NCBI GenBank assembly: GCA_016218155.1
Contig: JACREQ010000105.1
Span: 129,294 to 193,293, forward strand
From: Bacteroidia bacterium
Lineage (GTDB): Bacteria > Bacteroidota > Bacteroidia > Bacteroidales > GWA2-32-17
Length of the DNA stretch: 64,000 nt
Reading direction: 5' to 3'
The position numbers and the translations under genes are program-made. Shown here in pieces: positions 16,189 through 33,190 of the stretch (positions are counted from its first letter, which is position 1; every line of letters begins with the position of its first letter). The notes under the pieces are model-generated. The model did not search any database, was not told the origin of the DNA, and saw only the letters and a list, made by a program, of their open reading frames with translations.

Positions 16189-18162
16189 TTATTTACTTAG
16201 TATTTTAAATTCAACGCGTCTGTTTTGCTTTTTACCTTCTTCGGTATCATTTGAGGCTATTGGTTGTGAAAAAGCATATCCTTTATACTCCAAACGATTT
16301 TCGGCAATTCCTTTATTAATTAAAAACTCGACTACAGATTTTGCTCTTGCAGTTGATAATCTTGTATTTGTTTCAAGCGAACTCTGATTATCTGTATGTC
16401 CTGATATTTCGATACGTATATTCGGGTTTTCAACTAGCAGGTTATATAAATTCCCAAGTTCTGTAATAGACTCATCTTTTATTCTATCACTGGCATAATC
16501 AAAAAACATATTTCTTAATATAATTTTAGAGCCAACAGAAAAATTCTCAAGTTTAATATTTAATGTAACCTCAGAAAAAGCTGCTGATTCGGAAATATCA
16601 AAATTTTCAGAATGAAACAAATATCCTTTTGCCTTAACAGAGATACCATAATTTTTTCCTGAAGGTAAAGATATAAGATATTCACCGGTTGCTGAATTTG
16701 AAGTAAATATTGCTACAAGTTCATTTTTACTGTTATCTGTTATTTCAATCTCTGCTTCTATTGCAGAACCAGTATAAGCATCTTTTATAACTCCCATAAC
16801 AATAGTCACAGTAGCAATGCCCATTGGAGATTCTACTTCAGTATAATCTATAAGATAAATATCTTTATCGCCCATACCTTCGGATCTTACTGATGAGAAG
16901 TATCCATGCATACCGCTTGCAGACATTGTAAAATATATATCGTCATCCGGAGTATTTATCGGATAACCTATATTTACAGGTTCACTCCAGATTCCATCAG
17001 GTTGTAAAACTGAATAAAAGATATCATACCCACCCATTGTTTTATGACCCTTTGAAGAGAAATAAAGTGTTTTGTTATCAGGGTGAATAAAAACTCCTTC
17101 TTCGTCAAATTGTGTATTAATAACATTGCTTAACTTTTCCACATTGTCCCACTTACCTTTACTATCCTTTGTTGATCGATAAATGTCGCGACCTGTATTT
17201 TTATCCCTATCACTAACAAAGTATATAGTATTACCATCTGATGAAATACTGGCTGACGATTCTTTAAATTCTGAATTAATTGGCTTTGGTAAGGCATGAA
17301 GATCGCTCCATTTCTCTCCTTTAAGTTTACATGTATATAAATCGCCTCCATTATCACCCTTATAAATATATAGCTCTTGTCCGTCAGGAGATAAACCTAC
17401 TGTAGCTTCATGATTCTGAGTATTAATAGGTGTTCCTATATTTTCAGGAGTTGACCAGCCTGCATCAGTATTTTTGCTAAAGTAAACATCTTCAAAGAAG
17501 TTTAAGTCATTTTCATCTCGTTGCCCACCAGTAGTATTTGCACGTCGTGAAGTAAAAATCATAAGCTTTTCATCAGCAGAAATAAGTGGGCAATAATCTG
17601 GGAACTGCGAATTAACAAGATTAAGATTAATAATCTTACCTTTTACAACTGTATTAGCGAGAATAAAACCGTTTTTACATTCTTCTATTCTTTTGTTAAC
17701 ATTACTCTCAATTTCAGCTTTTTTTGCCTCATTTTTATTTACATTTTTATGAATAATAAATTCTTCAATTGCTTCGTCAAAACGCAATGAATTTTGTAAT
17801 GCAAGACCTAATTGAAAATGAATATCGTCTGCAACTGTTTTATCAAGACTAAAAGCTTTTTGAAGAAAAGCAAAAGCTTTATCTTTTTGAATTGAATTTA
17901 AATAACAAACTCCAATTTTATAATTAAGCAATGCATTTTCCGGGTTAAATGCATTTGCTTTTAAGTAATGTTCAAGTGCAATACTATAACAACATTTACG
18001 ATCTACAAATAATTCATTTCCTTCTAAAATACTTCTAAGTGCTGTTTTAAGTCCTTTAGTATCTTTTGAAAAATTATTTTTGGTAAACTCAACATTGGTC
18101 TGAGCAAACAAATTTATTGCAAAAAAACAAATTATTAATATTATGCAAAAGTGTTTTAACAT
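16189..18162 (-). CDS. Periplasmic TPR / PD40 beta-propeller / CarboxypepD_reg-like / OmpA_C fusion protein (paralog 1)
   Basis: 657 aa. Signal peptide, then a TPR block (ALEHYLKANAFNPENALLNYKIGVCYLNS). PD40-type repeats follow (DYCPLISADEKLMIFTSRR; EATVGLSPDGQELY; ESSASISSDGNTIYFVSDR; EEGVFIHPDNKTLYFSSKGHKTMGGYDIF). Next is a beta-sandwich (GVIKDAYTGSAIEAEIEITD...GEYLISLPSGKNYGISVKAKGY). The C-terminus is OmpA_C (IRIEISGHTDNQSS...ARAKSVVEFL...NRRVEFKIL). Confidence 0.9.
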   Translation of the reverse strand: MLKHFCIILIICFFAINLFAQTNVEFTKNNFSKDTKGLKTALRSILEGNELFVDRKCCYSIALEHYLKANAFNPENALLNYKIGVCYLNSIQKDKAFAFLQKAFSLDKTVADDIHFQLGLALQNSLRFDEAIEEFIIHKNVNKNEAKKAEIESNVNKRIEECKNGFILANTVVKGKIINLNLVNSQFPDYCPLISADEKLMIFTSRRANTTGGQRDENDLNFFEDVYFSKNTDAGWSTPENIGTPINTQNHEATVGLSPDGQELYIYKGDNGGDLYTCKLKGEKWSDLHALPKPINSEFKESSASISSDGNTIYFVSDRDKNTGRDIYRSTKDSKGKWDNVEKLSNVINTQFDEEGVFIHPDNKTLYFSSKGHKTMGGYDIFYSVLQPDGIWSEPVNIGYPINTPDDDIYFTMSASGMHGYFSSVRSEGMGDKDIYLIDYTEVESPMGIATVTIVMGVIKDAYTGSAIEAEIEITDNSKNELVAIFTSNSATGEYLISLPSGKNYGISVKAKGYLFHSENFDISESAAFSEVTLNIKLENFSVGSKIILRNMFFDYASDRIKDESITELGNLYNLLVENPNIRIEISGHTDNQSSLETNTRLSTARAKSVVEFLINKGIAENRLEYKGYAFSQPIASNDTEEGKKQNRRVEFKILSK

Positions 18163-18167
18163 TATAC

Positions 18168-20231
18168 TTAATTTTGAAGAACTTTAAACTCAACCCTTCG
18201 GTTTTGCTGACGTCCCTCTTCTTTATCATTAGAAGCAATTGGCTGTAAATAAGCGTATCCTTTAAATTCTAATCTGGAAGTTACTATACCTTTAGAAATT
18301 AAATACTCGACTACGGCTTTTGCTCTGTTTTCTGATAATTTCTGATTGGTTTGTAATGAACCCTGATTATCGGTATGACCTGAAATTTCTATACGGATAT
18401 TCGGGAAATCGGTAAGCATTTTAACAAGTCGGTCAAGCTCAGGGAAAGATTCAGGACGTAATGTTGCCTTTGCGTAATCGAAGAAAATGTTTTTAAGAAT
18501 AACTTTTTGTCCAACAGCCATTTTATTAAGTAGTATATCCTTTGTTATTTCCTGATAATTTGTTGCTGCAGGAATATCAAAATTTTCTGAATGGAAAAGA
18601 TATCCTGTTGCCTTAACAGCAATTCCGTAATTTCTTCCAGATGGCAACGAAATTAAATAACGACCGGTTGAGCTGTTTGATGATGATGTTGAAATAACTT
18701 CATTTTTAACATTATCTACAATTTCAATCTGAGCTTCAACAGGATTTAATGTTAATGCATCCTTTATAGTTCCTTTAAGTATTGTTAAACGGGTTGTTTT
18801 AATTTCTACCTGCTCGGCAATAATACTTTCTGCAACAGGTTCTACATTTGCTAACAAATTATCTTCATTATGTAAAACAGGAGTTTTTTCAGGACCACGA
18901 AAAGTTATCATATAAATATCATAGTCGCCTTGTCCATCATCACGTGAAGAACTGTAATAACCATGTTTACCACTTGCATTCATTATAAAAAACAAATCAT
19001 CGTCAGGAGTATTAACAGGGTATCCAAGATTTTCAGGCTTTGTCCATGTACCATCATCACTAAGTGTAGTTTTAAAAATATCAAAACCACCCATAGTATT
19101 ATGACCCCTTGAACTAAAATAAAGTGAACGACCATCAGGATGCATAAAAACACCTTCTTCATCATATTCGGTATTTATTGCACTTCCCATATTCTTTGGT
19201 TCTGCCCATCTCTCTTTTTCGGAATCCCAACGGGTTTCCCAAAGATCGTGTGCTCCAAAACCATCGGGTCTGTCACTTATAAAATACATTGTTCTGCCAT
19301 CAAACGAAAATGATGCTGAAGTTTCATGATAATCTGTATCTATGAATTTTTTTAAAGGTGAATCATCAGGGGATGTCCATTCAGAACCTTTAAGACTGGA
19401 AACAAAAATATCACCATTATTAGTTTTTCCATTAAAAGTAAAAAGCTGTTGCCCATCAGGCGAAAGACCAACGGTTGCATCATTATTATTAGTATTTAAC
19501 GGCTTACCAACATTTTTAGCAACTCCCCATGAATTTCCATCATTATATGATAAATAAATATCCTCAAAAAATAAATTGTCTTCAGGATCACGGCCCCCAC
19601 CATATGTATCTTCGCGACGTGAAGTAAACATCATCATTGACTCATCAGCTGAAATAAGAGGACTATATTCGGGATACATTGTATTTATTGTTGGTCCAAC
19701 ATTATCAATAAAAACGCGAATAGGATTTTTTATAAGGTCTTTACCAACGTTACACTCTACAATTCTTTTATCAATATCTTTTCTTTTTGCCTGAAGATCA
19801 GAAGGAGAAAGAGAATTTTTATATTTTGTATAAAGTTCAATTGCCTTGTCGAATTCAATATTAAGATGGTAGCCAGAAGCTAATACCCACATAATATCAG
19901 GTGCAATACCCGGATTAACACTATAAGCTTTTTTATAATACTCGATACATTTCACACGCTGTATTGAATGTAAATAACAATTTCCTATTTTATAATTCAA
20001 CATTGCATTATTCGGCAATTTCTGAACAACAGGCAAATAAAAATCAAGAGCTCTTCGTAAACCTCCTCTTCCAAGTGCATAATAATCTTCGGCCTGTTTC
20101 AGATTATCTTTTGCAACTTTATAATCATCTTTGCTAACAAAGTCCTCTTTTTTAATTTCAACTTCCTGAGCTTTTACAATACCTGTAAACACTATAAAAA
20201 CAACAGTCAATAATATTCCTATTTTTTTCAT
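18168..20231 (-). CDS. Periplasmic TPR / PD40 / CarboxypepD_reg-like / OmpA_C fusion protein (paralog 2)
   Basis: 687 aa with the same motif series as paralog 1 (EYSPLISADESMMMFTSRR; DATVGLSPDGQQLF; IRIEISGHTDNQGSLQTNQKLSENRAKAVVEYL...NRRVEFKVL). It is 5 nt from paralog 1. Confidence 0.9.
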   Translation of the reverse strand: MKKIGILLTVVFIVFTGIVKAQEVEIKKEDFVSKDDYKVAKDNLKQAEDYYALGRGGLRRALDFYLPVVQKLPNNAMLNYKIGNCYLHSIQRVKCIEYYKKAYSVNPGIAPDIMWVLASGYHLNIEFDKAIELYTKYKNSLSPSDLQAKRKDIDKRIVECNVGKDLIKNPIRVFIDNVGPTINTMYPEYSPLISADESMMMFTSRREDTYGGGRDPEDNLFFEDIYLSYNDGNSWGVAKNVGKPLNTNNNDATVGLSPDGQQLFTFNGKTNNGDIFVSSLKGSEWTSPDDSPLKKFIDTDYHETSASFSFDGRTMYFISDRPDGFGAHDLWETRWDSEKERWAEPKNMGSAINTEYDEEGVFMHPDGRSLYFSSRGHNTMGGFDIFKTTLSDDGTWTKPENLGYPVNTPDDDLFFIMNASGKHGYYSSSRDDGQGDYDIYMITFRGPEKTPVLHNEDNLLANVEPVAESIIAEQVEIKTTRLTILKGTIKDALTLNPVEAQIEIVDNVKNEVISTSSSNSSTGRYLISLPSGRNYGIAVKATGYLFHSENFDIPAATNYQEITKDILLNKMAVGQKVILKNIFFDYAKATLRPESFPELDRLVKMLTDFPNIRIEISGHTDNQGSLQTNQKLSENRAKAVVEYLISKGIVTSRLEFKGYAYLQPIASNDKEEGRQQNRRVEFKVLQN

Positions 20232-20245
20232 AATTCTAAATGTTA

Positions 20246-21298
20246 TTAATTACATTCTGAAACAAAAACAGAAGCAGCTTTAATACCTAATTCGTCTGCT
20301 TTCTTCCAATCATCACAGGCTTCCTTTACCATTCGAAGTTCTTCTTTTGCAATACCACGATTTAAATAAGCATAACCATAACTTGCATCTTTCTGAATTA
20401 ATTTATTAAAATCATCTATTGCGCCTTTATAATCTTTCATTTTAATTTTTGCAGAACCAAGATTATTATATGCAGCCAGATAATCATCTTTTAACATTAT
20501 TGCCTTGTTAAAATCTTCTATGGCACCTTTAAAATCTTTCTTTTCGAATTTTGCACTACCTCTGTTGTTATATGCAATAACATAGTCAGACTTAATTTTA
20601 ATAGCCTGGGAATATGCATCTATTGCTTCATCATATTTATCTTTTTTACGCAACACACTACCCAGATTATTATATGTAAAATCTAAGTTAGGGTCAATTG
20701 TTAGTGCTCTTCTATAATCGCTTATCGACTCATCAAATTTTTCGAGTTTTCTATATGCACTTCCACGATCATTATATGCTAATGCATATCTTGAGTCAAT
20801 TTGAATTGCACCTGTATAGTCCTCAACTGCTCCCTGATAATCATCTGCCATAAATTTAAGCATGCCTCTGTAATAAAAAGCTTTAGCATCTTTTAAACCT
20901 TTATTTATTGCTAATGTATAATCAATTACTGCTCCCTGATTATCTTTTAGCTGTTGTTTTGCTCTTGCACGTGAGTAATAAGCAGTAAGCATAGTAGAAT
21001 CATATTTTAAAGTAGCATCAAAATCTGAAATTGCATCCTGCAACATTTTCATTTCTACTTTTACACTTCCACGATTAAAATAAGCTTTTGCAAAATCAAC
21101 TTTATAACTAATTGCTTCGGTAAAATTATTTACAGCATCCTGATAAAGTTTATTTTTATAATTCTCAATACCTTTATTATATGCCATTTCAGCTTCCTGA
21201 TTCTCGGCAACAACTAAAGTAGTATCACCCTGAATCTGTGCTATAACAGTAATTCCGGTACAGAAAAACATAATAATAAATGGAAATAGATTTTTCAT
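20246..21298 (-). CDS. Secreted TPR-repeat protein
   Basis: 350 aa; signal peptide, then about 9 consecutive 34-aa TPR units (A.YNNLGSA......Y..AI.D..KAI.....Y..AY.NRG). Confidence 0.9.
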   Translation of the reverse strand: MKNLFPFIIMFFCTGITVIAQIQGDTTLVVAENQEAEMAYNKGIENYKNKLYQDAVNNFTEAISYKVDFAKAYFNRGSVKVEMKMLQDAISDFDATLKYDSTMLTAYYSRARAKQQLKDNQGAVIDYTLAINKGLKDAKAFYYRGMLKFMADDYQGAVEDYTGAIQIDSRYALAYNDRGSAYRKLEKFDESISDYRRALTIDPNLDFTYNNLGSVLRKKDKYDEAIDAYSQAIKIKSDYVIAYNNRGSAKFEKKDFKGAIEDFNKAIMLKDDYLAAYNNLGSAKIKMKDYKGAIDDFNKLIQKDASYGYAYLNRGIAKEELRMVKEACDDWKKADELGIKAASVFVSECN

Positions 21299-21405: not shown

Positions 21406-23364
21406 TTAAGACAACATATTAATTAAAACTTTATTAAGCGGATACCATGACAATGTGTTAATAACTTCGCTGATATGTACTCTTTTACCATCTTTATATA
21501 CAACTATCCATGCATCAGGGGTTCCACAACTTATTCTTTCTTGTTTAGCACTAGAATATTTGTCGTAACTACCAATTAAATATTTATACCAACCTTCATG
21601 ATTTTCCATTGAAATCTCTCTTTTCCCCGGATATCGCTGATGTAGTTCTGCATATGGAATTTCGCGATGACAAGCTCCAACCTGAACCTTAAAAGCAACA
21701 TTTGATGAACTTATTATCTGATCTGATTTTGTTTGGTTTGTATCATCGTTTTTTGCTACAACATCAGTCTTAACTTCATTACTAACAACTGCCTCTGATT
21801 TATTTTCAACAATAGGGTCATTATTTAAAACAGGTTGTATTTCAGTTTTATTTTCTGATTTTATTGTATCTTTTTTTTCTTCACCTCCATTATTAACATT
21901 CACAAATAAATTTGATGGTTCACCATTATCAACCGGAATACGATAATTATCAGGATTATCAACAGTATCGGTTTTGTTTACCATTGCAAGGTCCTGAATC
22001 TTTTGAAAAGAATAAATGTCAATAAAACCTAAGCCATCTTTTCTTATTGCAGAAAAATATCCATGTTCGTTTTCATTTTCTCCAAATACCTGACAATACA
22101 TTTCATTATCAGGAGTATTTAATGGAAATCCTAAGTTTTCGGGTTTTGACCATTTTCCATCAACTAAATTTGTACGAAACATATCAAATCCTCCCATTGA
22201 ATTATGTCCTGTTGATGAAAAATATAAAGTTTTACCATCTTTAGATAAGGAAACACCTTCTTCATCATAAATAGTATTTACATCACTACCCAGATTTTCT
22301 GGATCAGACCAATCTCCATTATCACTTAAATGAGACACAAAAATATCTCTTAAACCAAAAGTTTTATCATCTCTATTACTAACAATATACAATGTTTTTC
22401 CATCATCAGAAATACACGCAGATGACTCATGTGAAGAAGTATTTATTTTGCTTAGTGCTTTTGGCGATGACCATTCTCCATTATTAAATTCATACTCATA
22501 TAAATCGCCACCATTTATTAAACCACGGTAAATAAATAACAATTTACCATTAAAAGATAAACCAACACTTGCATCGTGCGAAGAAGTATTTACATTTCCA
22601 TTAATTTTTTGTGGCATCAGCCAACCATTTTCTCCTTTTGTTGACTGATAAATATCTTCATAATATTCCAATTCATTTGGATCAATCTCTCCACCTGTGC
22701 TACCCTCACGTCGTGATGTAAATATCATTAATTTCTCATCAGAGGTTATTAACGGTGCATAATCACTATGAACTGAATTTACGATGCTATTGTTTTCGAT
22801 TTTAACATTTACCGGATTAGAGACCAACAATTTTCCATTCTCACATTCTGAGATTTTTTTATTAATCTGTTTTGAAATTTCGGTTTTATCAGAACCAATA
22901 TATGCACTTTCAAATTTCTTATAATGTTCAATTGCATTATCAAACTGTAGATTATAATGATACCCTTGACCAATTGCATATTCAATTTTTGAGTCAACAT
23001 CTGATTTTAGGCTTTGAGATTTTAAAAAATAATCTAGTGAAGCAGCTTTATCTGATGAATTTAAATAACAAACTCCTATTTTAAAGTTTAAAATTGAATA
23101 ATTTGGATTAAATGAATTTGCTTTTAAATAATATTCGAGTGCCTGAGGGTACAACCATTTCTTTTGTTTAGAAAATAAATCATCGCCTTTTTTAATATTT
23201 TGTACCGCTTGATTAAATCCGGTTTCGTCTGTAAAATTCTTTTTCTTAAATTCAATATCCTGTGCATTTACATTTACAAATATCATTAAATTAACAAATA
23301 GAAAAAACACAACAAATTTTACAGATGAACCAAAAGATAATTTGGAGATAAATTTCACTTGCAT
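21406..23364 (-). CDS. Periplasmic TPR / PD40 beta-propeller protein with a C-terminal SPOR-like domain (paralog 3)
   Basis: 652 aa. The N-terminal two thirds are colinear with paralogs 1 and 2 (ALEYYLKANSFNPNYSILNFKIGVCYLNS; DYAPLITSDEKLMIFTSRR; DASVGLSFNGKLLF; YDEEGVSLSKDGKTLYFSSTGHNSMGGFDMF). A disordered N/K/E-rich linker follows. The C-terminus is FKVQVGACHREIPYAELHQRY...GWYKYLIGSYDKYSSAKQERISCGTPDAWIVVYKDGKRV, which fits the SPOR beta-alpha-beta pattern. No OmpA_C motifs. Confidence 0.85.
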   Translation of the reverse strand: MQVKFISKLSFGSSVKFVVFFLFVNLMIFVNVNAQDIEFKKKNFTDETGFNQAVQNIKKGDDLFSKQKKWLYPQALEYYLKANSFNPNYSILNFKIGVCYLNSSDKAASLDYFLKSQSLKSDVDSKIEYAIGQGYHYNLQFDNAIEHYKKFESAYIGSDKTEISKQINKKISECENGKLLVSNPVNVKIENNSIVNSVHSDYAPLITSDEKLMIFTSRREGSTGGEIDPNELEYYEDIYQSTKGENGWLMPQKINGNVNTSSHDASVGLSFNGKLLFIYRGLINGGDLYEYEFNNGEWSSPKALSKINTSSHESSACISDDGKTLYIVSNRDDKTFGLRDIFVSHLSDNGDWSDPENLGSDVNTIYDEEGVSLSKDGKTLYFSSTGHNSMGGFDMFRTNLVDGKWSKPENLGFPLNTPDNEMYCQVFGENENEHGYFSAIRKDGLGFIDIYSFQKIQDLAMVNKTDTVDNPDNYRIPVDNGEPSNLFVNVNNGGEEKKDTIKSENKTEIQPVLNNDPIVENKSEAVVSNEVKTDVVAKNDDTNQTKSDQIISSSNVAFKVQVGACHREIPYAELHQRYPGKREISMENHEGWYKYLIGSYDKYSSAKQERISCGTPDAWIVVYKDGKRVHISEVINTLSWYPLNKVLINMLS

Positions 23365-23666: not shown

Positions 23667-26147
23667 ATGACTAATCATCTGTTAATCAAAATAATATTTT
23701 TCTTTATTTTATTCCTTAATTTTAATATCTTTTCAGAAAGAATTAATGCTCAGGATATACCCCAAAATAGAAAAAAACTTCAGAAGCTTGCAAATGAACA
23801 TTTTAACAATGAAGAATTCAGTAAAGCCTTGCCATTATTATTAATACTTGACAGTTTAACTCCGGATAATTTTGAGATTAAATATGAGATTGGTGCTTGT
23901 TATTTAAATACTCCTTATGAAAAAACCAAAGGAATTCCATATCTTGAGTATGCATTAGAAAAAGGGGGTAATCTGTTACCAAATGTTGTTTTTTACGATT
24001 TAGGTACTCTCTATCATATTAATTACCAATTTAACGAAGCAGAAAATCAATTTAAAAGATTTTTAGAAATTACCGAAAAAAACAATCACTTAAGATTGTC
24101 TGCCTCAAGAATGATTACTATTTGCAATAATGCAAAAGAAATATATTCTAATCCAATTCTTACCGAAATTTATAATATTGGTGCTCCTATTAATTCCGAT
24201 AATAGCGAAACAACTCCGTTAATTTCTGCAGATGAAGAAATAGTATTTTTCACAAGATCTTTTTCTAAAACTTATGGTCAGTTAGATATAGAATTTTTAA
24301 AAAAAATATATTGTTCGGTACTAAAAAATAAAAAATGGCAGGAGCCATTTGAAATTAATATCGAAAACCCAATTGATGGCATGCAAATATCATTGGCAGG
24401 TACATCCCCGGATGGTGAATTATTGTTTTTTTCAATTGGCAATGAGACGTCTTCAGACATTTATTTCTGCAGAATAATAGACGGAAAATGTAATAATTTT
24501 AATAAAATGCCTGATGTTATAAATTCATCTTTCTGGGAAGGGAAAGTGAGTATAACACCTGATGGCAATACTCTGTATTTCTCGAGTAACAGACCTGGCG
24601 GATTTGGTGGAAAAGATATTTATGTTGTTACAAAAGATGAAAATGGAAATTGGGTTGATTTAAAAAATTTGGGTTCCTCTGTTAATACTGAGTTTGACGA
24701 AGATGCCCCATTTATTCATCCTGATAACAAAACTCTATATTTTTCATCAAATGGTCACAATACTATGGGTGGCTATGATGTTTTTACAAGTGTTAAACAA
24801 GATACAACCAACAACTGGACAGAACCGACAAATTTAGGTTATCCAATAAATACAACCAGTGATGATATTGGTTTTGTGATTTCTGCCAACGGAAATAATG
24901 CATATTTGTCTTCGGCACATGATAACCAGTATGGAAAACATGATATTTACAAAGTTGTTTTACATAAAACCATTCCGCTTACTTTAATTAAAGGCGTAAT
25001 AATGGGTGGCGATCCTCCCAAGCCTGTAAAAGCAAAAATAAAGGTCATTGATCACGAAACAAAAGAAAGACTAAGATATGTGTATAATCCGAGCCCTAAA
25101 AACGGAAAGTACCTTCTTATTTTTCCACCAAATAAAAATTACGATATGATTATTGAAGCTGAAGGTTATTACCCTCAACTTATTAATATTTTCGTTCCAA
25201 ATCAAACCTATTTCTATGAACTTTTTCAGGAAATATATCTTAAACAAGTTAAAATCAACGAAAAAGATAGCGTTATTGGACAAGAAATAACTATAACAAA
25301 TACTTTCTATGATATATATAAAACAAAGGCAGCAGATAGCCTGACAAGCGAAGAGGAATCTAACAAAGTACACAAATTTGACGATTTACTAAAAACAGTT
25401 GAAAATATTATAAACTCTACGGACAGCATAGGATTAGATGCCCTTGATAGCCTTGCTGAGAATAATAACATTCTGGAAAATAAAAACAACAAAAAGTCAT
25501 CTAACAAAGAATATAATGACTTATTAAATTTAATCGAAAACGCTATTGAAAAAACAGACTCAATTTCATTACTTCTTTTAGATGCCAATACCATTTATAA
25601 TGATATAACAAGCAGTGTTTACTTTTTTGGAGTTGATAATATATCAAATAATTTAGAAAAGGTTATTGTAGACAATGACACAATATATACACTTCCTAAA
25701 TTAAATACTATTAAAAATAAAGAACAAAACAAAGTTGAAATAAAAAATGAACGAATTTTTGAATTTAAAACATCATCAGAAAATAGCAGAAAATATGTTT
25801 ACATCAATAATATATACTTTGACTCAGGGAAATCAATTATAGATAAAAAATATTCACAAATATTGAATAGCATAGTTGAACTATTGTTAATTAATAAAAA
25901 TTTAGGTATTGAACTTCATGGATATACAGACCCAGTCGGAGATGATGATGTTAATTTAGAATTATCAAAAACCCGCGCATTTAATGTTATGGAGTTTATT
26001 GTTTCGAAGCAGGTAGAGTCAAACAGAATTATAATGAACGGACATGGCGAATCTGGGAATGACTCAAAAGGTAAAATAAATGAAATGCAAATGTTAAGGA
26101 GAGTAGAACTTAAGATTTTTGAAGTTAAAAACCCTTCTCAGGAGTAA
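23667..26147 (+). CDS. Periplasmic TPR / PD40 / CarboxypepD_reg-like / OmpA_C fusion protein (paralog 4); YfiB-position gene
   Basis: 826 aa; ETTPLISADEEIVFFTRS, FDEDAPFIHPDNKTLYFSSNGHNTMGGYDVF, an N/K-rich insert, and OmpA_C (IELHGYTDPVGDDDVNLELSKTRAFNVMEFI...LRRVELKIF). It is transcribed divergently from paralog 3 and lies 5 nt upstream of the YfiR-like gene. Confidence 0.9.
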   Translation: MTNHLLIKIIFFFILFLNFNIFSERINAQDIPQNRKKLQKLANEHFNNEEFSKALPLLLILDSLTPDNFEIKYEIGACYLNTPYEKTKGIPYLEYALEKGGNLLPNVVFYDLGTLYHINYQFNEAENQFKRFLEITEKNNHLRLSASRMITICNNAKEIYSNPILTEIYNIGAPINSDNSETTPLISADEEIVFFTRSFSKTYGQLDIEFLKKIYCSVLKNKKWQEPFEINIENPIDGMQISLAGTSPDGELLFFSIGNETSSDIYFCRIIDGKCNNFNKMPDVINSSFWEGKVSITPDGNTLYFSSNRPGGFGGKDIYVVTKDENGNWVDLKNLGSSVNTEFDEDAPFIHPDNKTLYFSSNGHNTMGGYDVFTSVKQDTTNNWTEPTNLGYPINTTSDDIGFVISANGNNAYLSSAHDNQYGKHDIYKVVLHKTIPLTLIKGVIMGGDPPKPVKAKIKVIDHETKERLRYVYNPSPKNGKYLLIFPPNKNYDMIIEAEGYYPQLINIFVPNQTYFYELFQEIYLKQVKINEKDSVIGQEITITNTFYDIYKTKAADSLTSEEESNKVHKFDDLLKTVENIINSTDSIGLDALDSLAENNNILENKNNKKSSNKEYNDLLNLIENAIEKTDSISLLLLDANTIYNDITSSVYFFGVDNISNNLEKVIVDNDTIYTLPKLNTIKNKEQNKVEIKNERIFEFKTSSENSRKYVYINNIYFDSGKSIIDKKYSQILNSIVELLLINKNLGIELHGYTDPVGDDDVNLELSKTRAFNVMEFIVSKQVESNRIIMNGHGESGNDSKGKINEMQMLRRVELKIFEVKNPSQE

Positions 26148-26152
26148 TATTT

Positions 26153-26725
26153 ATGAGGCATTTCATTTCACATATAAGTCAAGTTATATTTTTATTATGG
26201 ATAGTTGCATTCATTAATTTACCAATTAAAAGCTACTCTCAACAATATACAGAATACGAATTAAAAGCCGCATATATTTTTAATTTTGGAAAATTTGTAC
26301 AATGGCCAGAAGAAGCGTTTAAAAAATCAACTGATCCTTTCATTATTGGCATTTTTGGCAACGATCCATTTGGTGATATACTACAACAAACCATTCAAAA
26401 CAAATCACTTCAAAACAGGCCAATAATTATTATTAATATTATAAATATTGAAGATGCATCAACATGCCATATTCTTTTTATAAGCAAAACAAATAAATTT
26501 AATTTAACTCAGGTAATTCAATCTTTAAACAATAAACCAGTTCTTACAATTGGCGATAACATAGAAGAATTTTGTCAAACCGGTGGAATAATAAATTTTA
26601 CCGGGCAACACTCACAAAAAAGATTCGAAATAAATAATAAAGCTTCGGCAAGGGTAAATTTAATAATTAGTTCTAAACTTTTAGTATTATCAAGAATTGT
26701 TACAGAAGATGAAATTAAATTTTAG
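26153..26725 (+). CDS. YfiR-family (DUF4154) periplasmic protein
   Basis: 190 aa; signal peptide, then [20 protein letters not shown]...ILFIS...VLTIGD...GGIINF, which I recognise as the DUF4154/YfiR pattern. Confidence 0.8.
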
Positions 26726-28610
26726 TAACATATCTTTTAAATATAAAATTATTTTGGTTATTTTATCAGTAACCTTAATTACTCAAATAATTGCAGCCTA
26801 CTTTTATGCAAGATATGACAAAAATGAATTTGTTCAGAAAAACATACAAAGTCTTGAAATAATTTCACAAATAATTTCTAGTAATTCTACAGCAGCAATT
26901 TTATTTAACGACTCCAAACAATCTGCAGATATTTTAAAATCACTTAAAGCTGAATTACACATAAAATCAGTTTGTATATATAATGACAAAAAGAAACCAT
27001 TTGCTTATTACAGAAGAGACAGTAATATAACAATTCCCACACAAGCAATATTTACAACTAAAAATGGCACAACATTAAGTGAAAATTATATTACACTTTT
27101 ACGACCAATTTTTGACGAATCAGACAATAAAACAATCATAGGTTACATCTTCCTGGATCGCGACTTAGCAGACTATGATACAAGATTTTCCAAATCATTA
27201 TTAGTTTTAATAATCATTACATTTTCATCATTGGTTTTTGCATTAATTATTTCCACCCAAATGCAAAAAATAATTTCAGTACCAATAAAAAAACTTTCTC
27301 AAACTGTTAAGAATATTACAGAAAATGGTGATTTTTCTGTAAGAATTGAAAAAAAGGGAAATGACGAAGTCGGTGAACTAACAGGAGGTTTTAACGGAAT
27401 GTTATCCAAGATAGAAGAGCAGAACGAAGCACTTATATTAGCAAAAGAACAAGCTATCGGTTCTGCAAAAATAAAGGAAGTATTTTTAGCTAACATGAGC
27501 CATGAAATAAGAACTCCAATGAATGCGATTGTTGGAATGTCAAATCTTATACTTGGAACACCAATAAACGACGAACAACGCGATTATTTGCAACACATTA
27601 AAACATCTGCCGATAATCTTCTTATTATAATAAATGACATTCTGGATTTCTCGAAAATTGAAGCAGGAAAAATTGAATTTGAGAATATCAGGTTTAATAT
27701 AAACGATACATTAGAAAATATACGTAAAACTTTTGACTTTAAGCTTAAAGGACATACGCTCGACTTTATAATTGAAAAAAATAACAACGTTCCAGATTAT
27801 TTAATTGGCGATCATGTCAGATTAAACCAAATACTTCTGAACCTAGTTGGGAATGCAATAAAATTCACCGAAAATGGAAGTATTAAAATTAAAATTGACA
27901 AAACAAATGAAAATGATGATCTTGTAGAATTACAGTTTAGTGTAATAGATACAGGGATTGGAATACCAAAAGATAAATTAGATTTTATATTTCAGAGTTT
28001 TAGTCAGGCAGCTAGCGATACAACTAGAAAATACGGTGGCACAGGGCTTGGATTAACAATTTGCAAGCAATTAATTGAATTACAAAAAGGAAAAATATGG
28101 GTTGAGAGTGAGCAAGGAAAAGGAAGCTCTTTCTGTTTTACAATACAATACAAAAAAACATCTGCACCTAGCTTATCAGAATTACAACAATTATCAATTC
28201 AAAATATTATTACTGTAACAAAAGATATTTTAGAAAATTCAAGAATATTAATTGTTGAAGATAATCCACTTAATTTATTGTTAGCTAAAACAATTCTTAA
28301 GAAACAAAATTTCAAAAACATCGACTCTGCTGAAAATGGACAAGAGGCAATAGATCTAATTAAAAATAATGACTATAACGTTATTTTAATGGATCTTCAT
28401 ATGCCAATTATGGATGGTTATCAAGCAACACTTTTTATAAGAGAACATATGAGTGAAAAGAAAAGACAGGTACCAATAATCGCTTTAACAGCTGCAGCTA
28501 TTAAAGGAGAACAAGAAAAATGTTTCGAAACAGGAATGAACGACTATATCTCAAAACCATTTAAACCGGAAGAATTATTTTCAAAAATCATACATTTCTT
28601 ACAACCTTAA
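26709..28610 (+). CDS. Hybrid sensor histidine kinase/response regulator with a CHASE8-like periplasmic domain and HAMP
   Basis: The track start is TTG 26697; the first ATG is 26709, overlapping the YfiR-like gene by 17 nt. Two TM segments flank a sensor domain ([43 protein letters not shown]). HAMP follows, then the H-box [12 protein letters not shown]-box [11 protein letters not shown]-boxes DTGIGIP and [13 protein letters not shown], and a receiver domain ([10 protein letters not shown]...[11 protein letters not shown]...ISKPF). Confidence 0.95.
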
Positions 28611-28719
28611 TTATAACCACATTAATAATTTTAATGTGTTATAAAATTAAATTTTATTAATTTTAAAGAAATATTAAAAAGCATATTACCTGATAATTAA
28701 TTTACTGTAAATTACCAAA

Positions 28720-29067
28720 ATGGAAATAAACTTAGATTTAAGCTATTTAGAAAATATGGCAGCAGGCGACAATAATCTTATAAAAGAGATGATTGAAATT
28801 TTTAAAGAACAGGTTCCAGAGTTTGTTTGCGAAATGAATAAAGCAATAAGCAATAATGATTCAAAAGCACTTGCTTCTATTGCACACAAAGCAAAATCAT
28901 CTGTTGCAATTATGGGAATTATAAGTCTTATTGAAGATTTGAAAGTACTCGAAAATATTGCTGCAAATAATGAGAGAACAGACGAATACCCCGAATTTGT
29001 TAACAGATTTATTTTAAATTCTAAGGAAGCAATAATAAAGTTAAATGAAGTCTCATCAAAATTATAA
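28720..29067 (+). CDS. Hpt (histidine phosphotransfer) domain protein
   Basis: 115 aa four-helix type with SIAHKAKSSVAIMG (phospho-His motif HKxKSS). Confidence 0.85.
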   Translation: MEINLDLSYLENMAAGDNNLIKEMIEIFKEQVPEFVCEMNKAISNNDSKALASIAHKAKSSVAIMGIISLIEDLKVLENIAANNERTDEYPEFVNRFILNSKEAIIKLNEVSSKL

Positions 29068-29084: not shown

Positions 29085-29846
29085 ATGTTAAAATCAGTTT
29101 TAAAATATTTCACCCTATCTTTTATTGTTTTCACAATGTTTGCATGCTCGGTTTTCACAGCAAAACAAGATGATATTGAAGAAAAAGAGGGGTTAACATA
29201 TTTAAAAGGAACCAAAAAACTTTTTACCGGTGAAGTGTTAGATAATTACGAAAACGGGAAAAATAGTATTTCTTATAATTATAAAGATGGAAAGAAAGAT
29301 GGCGTTTCAAAAGCCTGGTATGAAAGCGGTCAATTAGAATACGAAGGAAGATATCTTTCAGGATTAAAAGACGGAGAATTTAAAGGTTACTTTAACGATG
29401 GAACATTAGGTGCAGTTAGAAACTATTCAAACGGAGTAGAAAATGGTGATTGGAAAATATGGCATGAAAACGGAAAATTAAAAGAATCTGGTCACTTTAC
29501 AAAAGGACAGAAAGATAGTTTATGGAATTGGTATTATGAAAATGGTCAAAAATGGATTGAAATTAAATTTAACAATGGTAAAGAACAAGGTTTGTGGAAA
29601 GCATGGCACGAAACAGGCCAACTACGTGAAGAAATAAATTACCAGAACGGAAAAAAAGAAGGACTTTGGCAGGAATGGAATAAAGAAGGTCAAATAATTT
29701 CGAAAGGCTTGTACTCTCAGAACCACGAAAACGGAAACTGGTATGGCTGGTACGACAATGGTAAACCACGTTTCGAAAAACTTTTTAAGAATGGCGATAT
29801 TATTTATGACAAAGAATGGGATGAAAATGGTAATCCTATAAAATAA
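29085..29846 (+). CDS. MORN-repeat-variant (YwqK-like) lipoprotein
   Basis: 253 aa; lipobox FTMFAC; repeated G.K.G....W...G.L..E..Y..G..(D/E)G units. Confidence 0.8.
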   Translation: MLKSVLKYFTLSFIVFTMFACSVFTAKQDDIEEKEGLTYLKGTKKLFTGEVLDNYENGKNSISYNYKDGKKDGVSKAWYESGQLEYEGRYLSGLKDGEFKGYFNDGTLGAVRNYSNGVENGDWKIWHENGKLKESGHFTKGQKDSLWNWYYENGQKWIEIKFNNGKEQGLWKAWHETGQLREEINYQNGKKEGLWQEWNKEGQIISKGLYSQNHENGNWYGWYDNGKPRFEKLFKNGDIIYDKEWDENGNPIK

Positions 29847-29918: not shown

Positions 29919-31115
29919 CTACTTCACTCCCATTAATTCAACATCAAAAACAAGGTTTGATTTTGGAGGAATTGCACCAGGATAACCATTTTCTCCATAT
30001 GCTAATTGATAAGGGATTAATAATCTTAGCTTATCTCCCACTTTCATTAATCCAATACCTTCATCCCAACCTTTAATTACCATACCTTTTCCTAAGTCAA
30101 AATCAAGAGGCTGTCCGCGTTGAACTGAAGAATCGAAAATATCTCCATTTTCAAAATAACCGGTATAGTGAACAGAAACCTTTTTTCCTGCTTCTGCTTT
30201 AACAGCATCTTTTTTACCTTCGCTAACAACAATATATTTTAATCCTGTTGGTGTTGACAAAGTATCTTTACCTTTTGTATCAAATAAAGCTGGTTTAACT
30301 TCAGGTGTAAAATCAACTAATTCAACATCAAAAATTAAATTTGCTTTTGCAGGAATAACAGGTGAACGACCTGCTTCGCCATATGCTAATTGATATGGAA
30401 TTAATAATCGTGCCTTATCTCCTACTTTTAAAATTGAAATACCTTCATCCCAGCCTTTAATAACCATACCTTTTCCAACCTGAAAGCTTATAGGTTCACC
30501 ACGTTTTACTGATGAATCGAATATTTTTCCATCTTCAAAATAACCTGTATAATGAACTTTTACTGTTGATCCTTTTGGTGGTCTCTGATTATTCTTATTT
30601 GTCTGAGAAACCAAAATTAATTTTAAACCTGATGGAGTTTTTAATGTATCTTTTCCTGCTGTATTATATGGTTCTACCTTTACTTCAGGTGTAACTTTCA
30701 TAAGTTTTACAGTAAATTTTAGAGTAGAATTTGCGGGAATAGAACCCATACTTTGCGATCCATAACCTAATTCTGCAGGAATAATAAATACTGCTGAATC
30801 ACCTTCATTTAATAAAGCTATTCCTTCGTCCCAACCTTTAATTACTTGACCTTGTCCAAGTACAAAAGCAAATGGTTGTCCGCGTTTATACGAAGTATCA
30901 AAAATTGTATCATTCATTAATTTGCCCTCATAATGTACTGAAACTCTATCGCCTGGTTTTGGTTGCACACCTTTTCCTTTTTGAAGAATAACGTATTTAA
31001 GCCCTGAAGCTGTAGTTTTATAATCCTTTTCCTTTATCTGACTCATGGTTTGAAATGTTATAAGATTAATTGCTAAGGCTGTTAGCCATAAAAATTTTAT
31101 TTTCATATTATTCAA
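29919..31115 (-). CDS. FKBP-type peptidyl-prolyl isomerase with three tandem FKBP domains
   Basis: 398 aa; signal peptide, then three repeats of T(A/P)SGLKY...G..V.VHY.G......FDSS..RG.P..F.(L/V)G.G.VIKGWDEGI......G.K..L.IP..LAYG. Alternative start at 31106. Confidence 0.9.
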   Translation of the reverse strand: MNNMKIKFLWLTALAINLITFQTMSQIKEKDYKTTASGLKYVILQKGKGVQPKPGDRVSVHYEGKLMNDTIFDTSYKRGQPFAFVLGQGQVIKGWDEGIALLNEGDSAVFIIPAELGYGSQSMGSIPANSTLKFTVKLMKVTPEVKVEPYNTAGKDTLKTPSGLKLILVSQTNKNNQRPPKGSTVKVHYTGYFEDGKIFDSSVKRGEPISFQVGKGMVIKGWDEGISILKVGDKARLLIPYQLAYGEAGRSPVIPAKANLIFDVELVDFTPEVKPALFDTKGKDTLSTPTGLKYIVVSEGKKDAVKAEAGKKVSVHYTGYFENGDIFDSSVQRGQPLDFDLGKGMVIKGWDEGIGLMKVGDKLRLLIPYQLAYGENGYPGAIPPKSNLVFDVELMGVK

Positions 31116-31965
31116 TGTTTATTAGTTCTATTTCAAAAATTAATGTCGAAAAAGGTTGTATCATTTTAAACTGCTGATCGCCGTAAGCAAGACCTGAAGG
31201 GATTATTAGTGTTGCCTTTCCACCTTTTTTCATCATACCAATACCTTCTTCGAGCCCGGGGATTACTTCTTTTTCGCCAAACTTGAATTCAAAAACTTCG
31301 CCACGTTTTAAAGAGGAATCAAAAACTTCGCCACTAACAAAAGAACCAGTATAATGAACTTTTACTTTTTGTCCAACCTTTGGATAACTTCCCTTTCCTG
31401 CCTTATCTTCGATATAATAAAGTCCGGTACTTGTTGGTTTTACAGTAATATTTGCATTTTCAATAAATGATTCCAGAATTTTTTGTTCCTGTTCGGCTGT
31501 CATTAAATCTGCAGCCTTTTTCTCTTCTAAAAATTTATCATAACTAAAAATTTCAACAAGCTTAATATTAAAAACTAGCTTATCTCCTTTCTTAATAAAT
31601 TCAGGAATTGCACTGTTTTTTGTTTCTAAAAAGAATCTTTCGGCATCTACAACAAACTCTGCACTGTCGCCTTCATGCATTAATGCAAAAGCATCATCAA
31701 TAGTTCCTCCGTTTTTTGAAGCAGCATTCATTTTCATTCTAAAAGGCTGCCCGTTAAATTCTTTAGTATCAAAAAGTACTGAATCTTTCTCAGTTGTGTA
31801 TTTCATTTTAATAACAAGAATATCGCCAACAACAGGTTTCTTATTATTATCGTTTCTTACAAAGAACTTGTATTTCATTCCTGAAGTATCAGTAACATAA
31901 CCATCAGAATTACAAGAGTAAGCTACTATAATAAGAGCCAATAAATAAAAAATATTCTTCATCAA
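31108..31965 (-). CDS. FKBP-type peptidyl-prolyl isomerase lipoprotein
   Basis: 285 aa; lipobox IVAYSC; an N-terminal FKBP-like/degenerate domain, a linker helix, and a C-terminal canonical FKBP (VKVHYTGSFVSGEVFDSSLKRGEVFEFKFGEKEVIPGLEEGI). Confidence 0.9.
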   Translation of the reverse strand: MMKNIFYLLALIIVAYSCNSDGYVTDTSGMKYKFFVRNDNNKKPVVGDILVIKMKYTTEKDSVLFDTKEFNGQPFRMKMNAASKNGGTIDDAFALMHEGDSAEFVVDAERFFLETKNSAIPEFIKKGDKLVFNIKLVEIFSYDKFLEEKKAADLMTAEQEQKILESFIENANITVKPTSTGLYYIEDKAGKGSYPKVGQKVKVHYTGSFVSGEVFDSSLKRGEVFEFKFGEKEVIPGLEEGIGMMKKGGKATLIIPSGLAYGDQQFKMIQPFSTLIFEIELINIE

Positions 31966-32185: not shown

Positions 32186-33145
32186 CTACTTTGTTATCTT
32201 TTTCAACGCAACAGTTTTACCATTCTCCACCTTTACCAAATACAACCCCTTTGCCAACTTCTCTGTATTGATCACAAACTCATTTTCCTTAGTTATTGTT
32301 TGCAAAATTACTTTGCCCGTAATATCTAAAACACTTAAAGTTGTATTTTCACTAGGTATATTGTTAAACTTTACATTAAGGTGGTTAACCCATGGGTTTG
32401 GGTAAATTGTTATATCTTCTGTGTTTTTTACTGTTTGCTCACTTACCCCCAACCAATTCTCGCAAAAAAGAGAATCCGGGCTAACACATACATCATCTAT
32501 ATAATAATATGCATAATTATTATTTGTAGGCGATAAGTTTAAAGTATCAGTATGTGCATCATCAAAAAAATTGCCTAACAGTATATACGAATAAGCCGAA
32601 TCGGCAATAAAAGAACCGCTTATTCTTGTCCATTTAGCAGTATCGGTAATTATTGTATTAGTATAAAAGTGCGCTGTGTTATTTATTGGAGCAGGGTTAG
32701 AATATGAATAAGGAATTGTTGAAAATTTAATGCCTATTTTATTTGAGGCAATTGTTGTACCTAAATTAATTCCCCCAGAAAGGTTTACATAAAATGAAAA
32801 AAAATATTTTTGATTAATCACAAAGGAACTTACTAATTGTGAACCTATAAACTCTCTGTTATTTTGGGGTATTGGAGTAAAAGTTATTAATCCTAGAAAA
32901 GCGTTCCCTGAATGAGAATATTGATAACCTGCAGAACAATTTGGTGGTACAATATCTAAAAAAGAAGAACAAGAGTTATAATAATCTGGAGTTTCTCTAC
33001 AAACAAACCAATTTTGACAATACAATAGTTGATCCATATAATTTGGACAAAAACTATATTGCTCATAACTTGGATTGGAAACTAAATTTTGAGTAAAACT
33101 ATTAAAAGGGAAAAAAAATAACAATAAACATAATATTTTATTCAT
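32186..33145 (-). CDS. T9SS type A C-terminal-domain secreted protein
   Basis: The track start, GTG 33178, lies inside a terminator hairpin. ATG 33145 gives MNKILCLLLFFFPFNSFTQ, a signal peptide. The mature N-terminus is NLVSNPSYEQYSFCP. The C-terminus ITIYPNPWVNHLNVKF...LSVLDITGKVILQ...LAKGLYLVKVENGKTVALKKITK matches the Por secretion tail pattern. Confidence 0.85.
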   Translation of the reverse strand: MNKILCLLLFFFPFNSFTQNLVSNPSYEQYSFCPNYMDQLLYCQNWFVCRETPDYYNSCSSFLDIVPPNCSAGYQYSHSGNAFLGLITFTPIPQNNREFIGSQLVSSFVINQKYFFSFYVNLSGGINLGTTIASNKIGIKFSTIPYSYSNPAPINNTAHFYTNTIITDTAKWTRISGSFIADSAYSYILLGNFFDDAHTDTLNLSPTNNNYAYYYIDDVCVSPDSLFCENWLGVSEQTVKNTEDITIYPNPWVNHLNVKFNNIPSENTTLSVLDITGKVILQTITKENEFVINTEKLAKGLYLVKVENGKTVALKKITK

Positions 33146-33157
33146 ATGAAAACAAGA

Positions 33158-33190
33158 ATTTGAAAGCCTGATTTTCACAGGCTTTCAAAT
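33158..33190 (-). terminator. Rho-independent terminator retained behind the orphan CTD remnant
   Basis: ATTTGAAAGCCTG / CAGGCTTTCAAAT: a perfect 13-bp stem with a 7-nt loop, 10 nt downstream of the remnant's TAA. Confidence 0.7.

Follow-up and report, generated by a model that had tools for sequence, protein, structure and literature searches.

Organization of the locus

The DNA analysed here, referred to as the window, is a stretch of 64,000 nt from a Bacteroidia bacterium (GenBank assembly GCA_016218155.1, contig JACREQ010000105.1, positions 129,294 to 193,293 of the forward strand). Positions 23667-29067 of the window hold a conserved four-gene envelope-sensing operon of the Bacteroidia, which belongs to an already recognised family of sensor kinases associated with YfiR-like proteins. 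Its genes and principal domains are as follows.

23667-26147, + strand: gene 1, 826 aa, secreted TPR/TolB-like propeller/beta-sandwich/insert/OmpA_C protein
25314-25787, + strand: lineage-specific insert of gene 1, residues ~550-707 in the structure model and ~535-710 in the paralogue alignment
25788-26126, + strand: OmpA_C peptidoglycan-binding domain of gene 1, residues ~708-820, with the TD..G....N..LS..RA motif intact
26153-26725, + strand: gene 2, 190 aa, secreted YfiR-like (DUF4154) protein, NCBIfam TOL_0243 family
26709-28610 (ATG start), + strand: gene 3, 633 aa, hybrid kinase with two transmembrane helices (TM1 and TM2), TM1-CHASE8-TM2-HAMP-HisKA-HATPase_c-REC
26811-27182, + strand: periplasmic CHASE8 sensor domain of gene 3, residues ~35-158 (Pfam CHASE8)
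28720-29067, + strand: gene 4, 115 aa, stand-alone Hpt phosphotransfer protein

The open reading frame (ORF) coordinates bear out the initial annotation of four co-directional genes, with 5 nt separating genes 1 and 2 and the kinase ATG at 26709 lying inside gene 2 (stop codon 26723-26725), an overlap of 17 nt. In the mechanical ORF list the kinase starts from a TTG at 26697, 12 nt 5′ of this ATG, and is 637 aa long; overlaps of 10-17 nt are annotated at the same junction in relatives, and the ATG is therefore favoured. Both peptides quoted in the initial annotation are present in the translations, and all of its domain calls are confirmed, with Pfam matches, judged throughout against gathering scores, above those scores. 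A scan for sigma-70 promoters in the window performs no better than on shuffled sequence. Likewise, the Bacteroidota promoter motif TAnnTTTG is not enriched, and none is located on the + strand upstream of gene 1. The 109-nt spacer between the kinase and Hpt genes is not conserved and yields no convincing hairpin (z = -0.94).

The YfiR-like protein and the CHASE8 sensor kinase

Gene 2 carries a cleavable signal peptide, judged by hydropathy, and matches the Pfam family DUF4154, ‘YfiR/HmsC-like’, at E 1.2e-42 and 145.9 bits (cut-off 24.9), which settles the family assignment proposed for 26153-26725. In its AlphaFold2 model, with a predicted local distance difference test (pLDDT) score of 87, the top 15 fold matches in the PDB are all YfiR, at target-normalised template modelling scores of 0.72-0.77 and ~20% identity. 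By sequence, gene 2 is only distantly related to Pseudomonas aeruginosa YfiR: pairwise comparison with the PDB entry gives E 0.07, a profile of 32 homologues gives E 2.6e-4, and the YfiR equivalog NF053586 scores 41.3 bits, below its cut-off of 85. The model NF053591, ‘TOL_0243 family YfiR-like periplasmic protein’, is matched over positions 1-149 of 150 at 139.4 bits (cut-off 125).

Malone et al. (2012) placed the YfiN-binding surface of YfiR around V160, F162 and L183 (PMC3375315). F158 of gene 2 (26624-26626) aligns with F162 and L179 with L183, and F158, I160, N161, L176 and L177 are invariant among the 32 YfiR-like homologues. The near-invariant C105 and C141 of gene 2 are the counterparts of C110 and C145 of YfiR.

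Hydropathy places two transmembrane helices in the kinase (residues 10-34 and 159-186) on either side of a ~125-aa periplasmic domain, the topology that had been proposed. The periplasmic region gives a significant Pfam CHASE8 match (E 1e-13, 51.8 bits, cut-off 27), again as foreseen, and is followed by HAMP (46.1 bits), HisKA, HATPase_c and Response_reg. The N-terminus spans all of NF053592, ‘sensor histidine kinase, YfiR-like protein-associated’ (model positions 1-223 of 223), at 168.6 bits, under the cut-off of 194. A PDB sequence search with the sensor domain returned no solved relative.

Within the sensor, A62-A63-I64-L65-F66 (26892-26906) is the counterpart of the YfiR-binding AAVVF motif of YfiN; in P. 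aeruginosa, YfiR-insensitive YfiN mutations map to A66-A67-V68-V69-F70 (Malone et al. 2012, PMC3375315). The periplasmic ‘PAS’ domain of YfiN has since been re-classified as CHASE8 (PMC8085984). Across 28 Bacteroidia and 58 other sensors, N-S-x-A-A-[LIV]-x-[FY]-N-D is the best-conserved periplasmic stretch, and the aromatic position of the AAILF-type motif is kept in 28/28 of the former and 57/58 of the latter. YfiR-style control of the kinase is thus well supported by homology.

The NCBIfam identity ‘PieS’, after a Listeria kinase (PMC9545042), was considered for gene 3 and rejected, as a score of 169 against a cut-off of 850 reflects generic kinase similarity.

Phosphorelay and output

The residues of a His-Asp phosphorelay are intact in the translated sequences. 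H265 (27501-27503), in SHEIRTP, is the predicted HisKA phospho-acceptor, the ATP-binding boxes DTGIGI and GTGLGL are present, and D562 (28392-28394), in LMDLHMP, is the REC phospho-acceptor. Gene 4 matches Hpt (Pfam E 2.4e-8, 34.5 bits) and has a single candidate histidine, H56 (28885-28887), in AHKAKSS. The catalytic and acceptor positions of the phosphorelay are invariant in the kinase alignment.

The view that the window has neither a GGDEF domain nor a terminal response regulator also stands: no other REC domain was found in the 64 kb with a receiver profile of 176 diverse sequences (E<=1), and a REC-GGDEF-EAL jackhmmer profile detected no GGDEF or EAL there. A STAS profile likewise detected no STAS domain in the 64-kb window.

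In nearly all related loci, Hpt is either fused to the kinase or encoded next to it. Judged by Pfam, the kinase gene is followed by one for a stand-alone Hpt in 10 of the Bacteroidia loci and by one for a STAS protein in 7. Local profiles place a STAS protein of ~111 aa directly after Hpt in 12 Bacteroidia loci (L007, L013, L014, L016, L019, L020, L022, L024, L025, L026, L027 and L029), at ~2.8-3.4 kb from the start of DUF4154; neither the window nor its closest relatives have it. In the HptB-HsbR-HsbA pathway of Pseudomonas, a hybrid kinase feeds a stand-alone Hpt protein, and a STAS protein of anti-sigma-antagonist type takes part. The STAS genes after Hpt in 12 loci hint at a partner-switching output of this type for the Bacteroidia lineage, by analogy, with the hybrid kinase and stand-alone Hpt as further points of likeness. 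The likeness is incomplete, as no REC-PP2C (HsbR-like) protein is located beside the module in any locus, and the window has no STAS gene.

One member of the clade has a plain 478-aa kinase with neither REC nor Hpt, followed by a 272-aa TPR protein (L005:8563-10835). Even inside the lineage, then, the module varies at its output end.

The propeller/OmpA_C protein and its insert

Gene 1 matches Pfam PD40 (E 4e-21) and OmpA (E 5e-16, 59.4 bits) and is identical (100 %) to a database protein, P0271, annotated ‘PD40 domain-containing protein [Bacteroidia bacterium]’. Hydropathy indicates a signal peptide of the signal peptidase I type, ending ...INA/QD, with no lipobox Cys. The AlphaFold2 model consists of TPR helices (residues 35-161), a propeller (167-431), a beta-sandwich (439-549), the insert and OmpA_C (708-820). 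The earlier description of a TPR/beta-propeller/OmpA protein thus holds overall; its TPR part rests on the structure model and on orthologues, as the window protein itself has no Pfam TPR match. In Foldseek comparisons the fold nearest to the propeller is TolB, and those nearest to the C-terminal domain are the PorE C-terminal domain, OmpA, OprF and Pal (6top, 3td3, 5u1h, 1oap). D755, N763, L766, S767 and R770 of OmpA_C are invariant among gene 1 orthologues, and D755 and R770 are residues of the peptidoglycan-binding motif.

The insert, ~160-175 aa directly before OmpA_C, is conserved in the orthologue consensus. It consists of two helical hairpins with an internal repeat (DDLLKTVENIINSTDSI / NDLLNLIENAIEKTDSI) followed by a small beta unit. 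Upstream of the module, the window encodes a divergently oriented cluster of gene 1 paralogues.

16192-18183, 18168-20231 and 21406-23364, - strand: three gene 1 paralogues, TPR/PD40 proteins, PorE/CHU_0125-like
20246-21298, - strand: TPR protein within the paralogue cluster

Two of the three paralogues have OmpA_C; that at 21406-23364 has a different C-terminus. In alignment, the insert is missing from all three. Among the loci as a whole, a local profile covers the insert positions in 0/17 paralogues that are not adjacent to DUF4154; as the profile was defined by the 24 DUF4154-adjacent copies, this negative paralogue result is the only independent one. A homologue search with the insert alone returned one match, the insert being compositionally simple, so that the word index misses relatives. 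The insert is a candidate docking region for the YfiR-like protein.

Gene 1 scores 192.2 bits on the PorE model (cut-off 600) and 222.1 bits on that of CHU_0125 (cut-off 620). Many related loci likewise have divergently oriented paralogues clustered upstream of the module, which suggests that gene 1 arose by local duplication.

Conservation of the module within the Bacteroidia

Conservation of the trio as neighbours, on which the initial annotation had made its proposal depend, was assessed by a locus scan with one genome per species that added 80 further loci. The trio, with abutting or overlapping genes, is found in ~24 independent Bacteroidia loci. YfiR-like homologues at 71% down to 44% identity all sit in the order PD40+OmpA protein (~790-845 aa), DUF4154, CHASE8 kinase, and the flanks differ from locus to locus (methyltransferase/MnmE, integrase/TPR, Fur/ClC, trehalose-phosphatase/UvrB). 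Directly upstream of DUF4154, the gene encodes PD40 in 24/24 Bacteroidia loci and OmpA in 23/24. In 28/28 loci the DUF4154 gene overlaps the downstream CHASE8 kinase gene. All 28 kinases combine CHASE8 with HAMP, HisKA and HATPase; 24/28 also have REC, and in 12/28 Hpt is fused to the same chain.

These observations dispose of the notion that the four adjacent genes are functionally unconnected. Chance neighbourhood is hard to square with reading frames that overlap or abut, with a trio kept in ~24 loci despite different flanks, with a linked lineage that forms one clade, or with NCBIfam models built on the same association in other phyla; it is effectively refuted by the synteny and carries a negligible probability.

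In a neighbour-joining tree of 87 sequences (midpoint-rooted, with saturated distances capped), the YfiR-like proteins linked to PD40/OmpA form one clade with bootstrap 100/100. The nearest outgroup is L004, followed by members linked to TonB-dependent receptors. At L004, a protein of ~410 aa with no Pfam match at E<=0.01 overlaps the start of the YfiR-like gene (L004:6763-8013), and may be another kind of partner.

The wider YfiR-like family

Comparison loci were taken from the Acidobacteriota, Verrucomicrobiota, Planctomycetota, Armatimonadota, Desulfobacterota and Pseudomonadota. In these phyla, 49/53 loci have a TonB-dependent receptor gene as the upstream neighbour of the YfiR-like gene. 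The downstream gene encodes CHASE8 and HAMP in 57/58 loci and a kinase in 53/58; GGDEF is present in 2/58, REC in 24/58 and Hpt in 15/58. The gene after the kinase encodes a response regulator in 23/48 loci and carries GGDEF in 7/48. Since 53 of the 58 genes encode kinases, signalling through a kinase or phosphorelay is the usual arrangement in this branch of the family. The module was therefore not locally ‘rewired’ to a phosphorelay, as the initial annotation had supposed.

On NF053590, ‘TOL_0244 family TonB-dependent receptor’, several of the upstream receptors attain the cut-off or come near it. NF053590, NF053591 and NF053592 are consecutive NCBIfam models, and the receptor/YfiR-like/kinase cassette is accordingly read as one already modelled by curators. 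In silico, pairs of YfiR and YfiN without YfiB, in which GGDEF is replaced by a histidine kinase, a hybrid kinase or HPT, have been described in Opitutus, Acidobacteria Ellin345, Geobacter, Rhodothermus and Desulfobacterium, and an ancient modular YfiR-YfiN[PAS/HAMP] core was proposed by Malone et al. 2012; neither TonB receptors nor OmpA fusions are mentioned there (PMC3375315). The claim that such a phosphorelay variant is uncharacterised therefore survives only in part: the concept has been known in silico since 2012 and is embodied in the NCBIfam models, whereas a full-text literature search, in which DUF4154 turned up in a single paper, found no experimental study of any kinase-output YfiR-like member. 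The family is large, with 26,928 matches at E<=1e-3 and 5,326 at E<=1e-30 among 1.84 billion 50%-identity representatives.

What is apparently undescribed is the swap of partner in the Bacteroidia to a TolB/Pal-like protein with a dedicated insert, together with the recurrent STAS gene. As TonB-receptor linkage extends across many phyla, one replacement of a receptor by an OmpA protein is the parsimonious reading, and we infer a single swap in the Bacteroidia lineage from a tree that is midpoint-rooted. An envelope-protein gene accompanies the core in other lineages too, either the TonB receptor (49/53) or YfiB in proteobacteria (PMC3375315), so that a swappable envelope partner looks like a general feature.

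Some YfiR-like loci have two tandem DUF4154 genes (L028, L031, L036, L052), which recalls the pair of YfiR homologues reported for Thauera by Malone et al. (PMC3375315). Additionally, some database proteins (P0122, P0123 and others) have two or three DUF4154 domains per chain.

At L030:8560-13427 and similar TonB-receptor loci, the CHASE8 hybrid kinase also contains PAS, two REC domains and Hpt, and the next gene encodes a REC-GGDEF-EAL regulator. In such loci cyclic di-GMP (c-di-GMP) would thus still be the final output, one phosphorelay removed. This layout matches the Legionella pair Lpg0278/Lpg0277, on which Lpg0279 acts genetically upstream and negatively (a histidine kinase and a REC-GGDEF-EAL protein; bioRxiv 10.1101/604611). 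Lpg0279-Lpg0278-Lpg0277 was considered as a characterised relative and set aside as an unverified lead, the paper containing no domain, topology or YfiR data.

Comparison with named systems

The module resembles YfiBNR/HmsCDE (P. aeruginosa PA1119-1121, the Escherichia coli DgcN system and Yersinia pestis HmsCDE) in its DUF4154/YfiR-fold protein and CHASE8-HAMP sensor, in the conserved AAVVF-type and F162-type contact residues, and in having as third operon partner a peptidoglycan-binding envelope protein of OmpA/Pal type. It differs in its output (HisKA-HATPase-REC plus Hpt, as opposed to the GGDEF of YfiBNR), in a YfiR-like protein that fails the YfiR equivalog (41 vs 85 bits) and has two of the four disulfide cysteines of YfiR, and in its partner, an 826-aa secreted protein without a lipobox that is encoded first in the operon, whereas YfiB is a lipoprotein of ~160 aa encoded last.

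Several features are shared with the NCBIfam TOL_0244/TOL_0243/histidine kinase triad. The YfiR-like protein passes NF053591, the N-terminus of the kinase is a full-length NF053592 match, and the order of envelope protein, YfiR-like protein and CHASE8 kinase is the same, with REC (24/58) and Hpt (15/58) present in the triad also. However, a PorE-like PD40/OmpA protein stands where the triad has a TonB-dependent receptor, and the kinase, at 168.6 bits, is below the NF053592 cut-off of 194. The downstream genes differ as well: in the Bacteroidia lineage Hpt often has a STAS gene after it, and in other phyla the genes after the kinase encode regulators of REC or REC-GGDEF type.

Gene 1 shares its TPR, beta-propeller, beta-sandwich and OmpA_C architecture with PorE of the Porphyromonas gingivalis type IX secretion system (T9SS) and with CHU_0125, and its C-terminal domain is similar in fold to 6TOP, the structure of the PorE C-terminal domain. 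It differs from both in falling below their cut-offs, in its extra ~160-175-aa insert, in lacking a lipoprotein signal and in having a YfiR-like gene, and not secretion genes, as its constant neighbour.

Proposed mechanism and alternatives

The module is best read as a Bacteroidia version of the widespread YfiR-like/CHASE8 envelope sensor, encoded as one operon, in which gene 1 would supply the envelope-state input; we put the probability of this reading at roughly 0.55. The YfiR-like protein would bind the periplasmic CHASE8 domain, the hydrophobic patch of F158 and L179 lying against an exposed AAILF. This is the best-supported step, because both genetically defined contact motifs are conserved. 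Binding would hold the kinase in one signalling state, presumably ‘off’ by analogy with YfiR-YfiN. Gene 1, anchored to peptidoglycan via OmpA_C, would present its TolB-like propeller and TPR array, and would report the state of the envelope by capturing or releasing the YfiR-like protein, probably via the insert. Relief of control would pass phosphate from H265 to D562, then to H56 of Hpt and on to a receiver whose gene is not in the window; the STAS genes of the 12 related loci suggest that a partner-switching output might follow.

Two features speak for a functional link between gene 1 and the rest of the module, namely the specific insert and a tight synteny with translational coupling that holds throughout the lineage. 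A sequestering role for gene 1 is conjectural, and likewise the physical interactions, the sign of regulation, the stimulus and the terminal target are all putative. As the usual partner in the family is a TonB-dependent receptor, sequestration in the manner of YfiB is only one of several possible input logics.

Several observations weigh against an envelope-state sensor of this kind. Gene 1 scores 31.3 bits on the YfiB model NF053585 (cut-off 128), through its OmpA_C part only, and the OmpA_C domains of the window paralogues score higher on the same model (68-78 bits). It has no lipid anchor, and its gene lies upstream, in an order different from yfiR-yfiN-yfiB. By sequence, gene 1 is no YfiB homologue in any specific sense beyond a generic OmpA_C, and the claim that it fills the YfiB position is not supported. 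The insert is modelled at low confidence (pLDDT 40-65). Gene 2 keeps two of the four disulfide cysteines of YfiR, so its redox behaviour may differ. Neither a terminal response regulator nor a STAS protein is encoded within the window. Finally, L017 and L018 are nested in the clade yet have no partner gene, so the YfiR-like/kinase core can stand alone. The proposal that a three-part Yfi logic is preserved thus keeps its YfiR fold, CHASE8 sensor, contact motifs and synteny, but loses gene 1 as a specific counterpart of YfiB.

Partnerless L017 and L018 are more comfortably accommodated if the YfiR-like protein is a co-receptor, that is, a ligand- or redox-binding protein (compare TorT-TorS, LuxP-LuxQ and the redox-sensitive HmsC-HmsD) that docks on CHASE8 and switches the kinase on binding a solute or on a change of its disulfide state. 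The upstream envelope protein would then deliver or concentrate the signal, or merely be co-regulated, with no sequestering. Import of a ligand suits the usual partner of the family, a transporter-type TonB-dependent receptor, and a redox signal suits the two near-invariant cysteines that are kept, since HmsC, a relative of YfiR, is under redox control (PMC8846402); the cysteines with which these two pair in the YfiR disulfides are missing, however. Such a co-receptor also leaves unexplained why a non-transporting, peptidoglycan-anchored replacement with an insert has remained translationally coupled in 23-24/24 loci. We consider it the strongest competitor, although a doubtful one.

The direction of control could also be the reverse, with gene 1 as a structural envelope protein of the PorE/CHU_0125 kind, serving outer membrane integrity or T9SS anchoring, that the YfiR-like/kinase pair monitors or regulates along with the adjacent paralogue cluster, and not as a sensor input. 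Gene 1 and its three window paralogues are indeed related, below the cut-offs, to the CHU_0125 ‘outer membrane integrity’ and PorE T9SS families, the C-terminal domain of gene 1 resembles that of PorE, and the divergent cluster recurs upstream of the module in many related loci. Yet the linked copy has an insert that the structural paralogues are without, and a spacing of 5 nt between genes 1 and 2, abutting or overlapping in relatives, suggests matched stoichiometry and not a regulon target. A TonB receptor occupies the same position in other phyla, and no regulator with a DNA-binding output is present locally. A checkpoint or target role of this kind is unlikely, distinctly more so than a co-receptor.

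Neighbouring genes

Downstream of the operon, 17 nt after the Hpt gene, lies one further gene in the same orientation.

29085-29846, + strand: MORN-repeat protein (Pfam MORN_2) with a lipoprotein-type signal peptide

An uncharacterised ORF of 264 aa, matching this gene in size and position, is present in L001 and L009, and at L012, a more distant locus, the module is again followed by a MORN_2 protein (L012:10675-11490); most related loci have none. The MORN gene is possibly an operon passenger outside the conserved core.

Two adjacent genes for multi-domain FKBP-type peptidyl-prolyl isomerases (29919-31965, - strand) are syntenic in L001, where Pfam gives FKBP_C. Their products are probably folding factors of the periplasm, and elsewhere the genes do not accompany the module. 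Beyond them, the C-terminus of a 330-aa ORF (32186-33178, - strand), …ITIYPNPWVNHLNVKF…LYLVKVENGKTVALKKITK, reads like a T9SS sorting domain. Were this borne out, the organism would possess a T9SS, a point that bears on the PorE-like paralogues.

Implications for envelope sensing

YfiBNR is the standard example of control over a cytoplasmic output by a partner switch in the periplasm. To our knowledge it has been studied only with a c-di-GMP output, in proteobacteria. The Bacteroidia module amounts to a natural experiment, in which the same core and contact motifs are combined with a wholly different envelope partner that has a discrete, deletable insert.

A broader and more tentative possibility, for which the odds are rather poor, is that YfiR-like proteins are general periplasmic adaptors between unrelated envelope proteins and CHASE8 sensors. 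The envelope proteins would be YfiB in beta/gamma-proteobacteria, TOL_0244-type TonB receptors in Acidobacteriota, Verrucomicrobiota, Planctomycetota and Desulfobacterota, and a TolB/Pal-like fusion in Bacteroidia. The Bacteroidia form might have arisen by a single partner swap, with the ~160-175-aa helical-repeat insert as a new docking site, and might be a peptidoglycan-tethered sensor with STAS partner-switching, not c-di-GMP, as its output.

Should the partner not capture the YfiR-like protein, the module would simply add another annotated example to a known family of kinases. If it does, the Yfi logic would be a portable scheme of trans-envelope signalling, and the module would offer a handle on how Bacteroidia sense the state of their cell wall and outer membrane.

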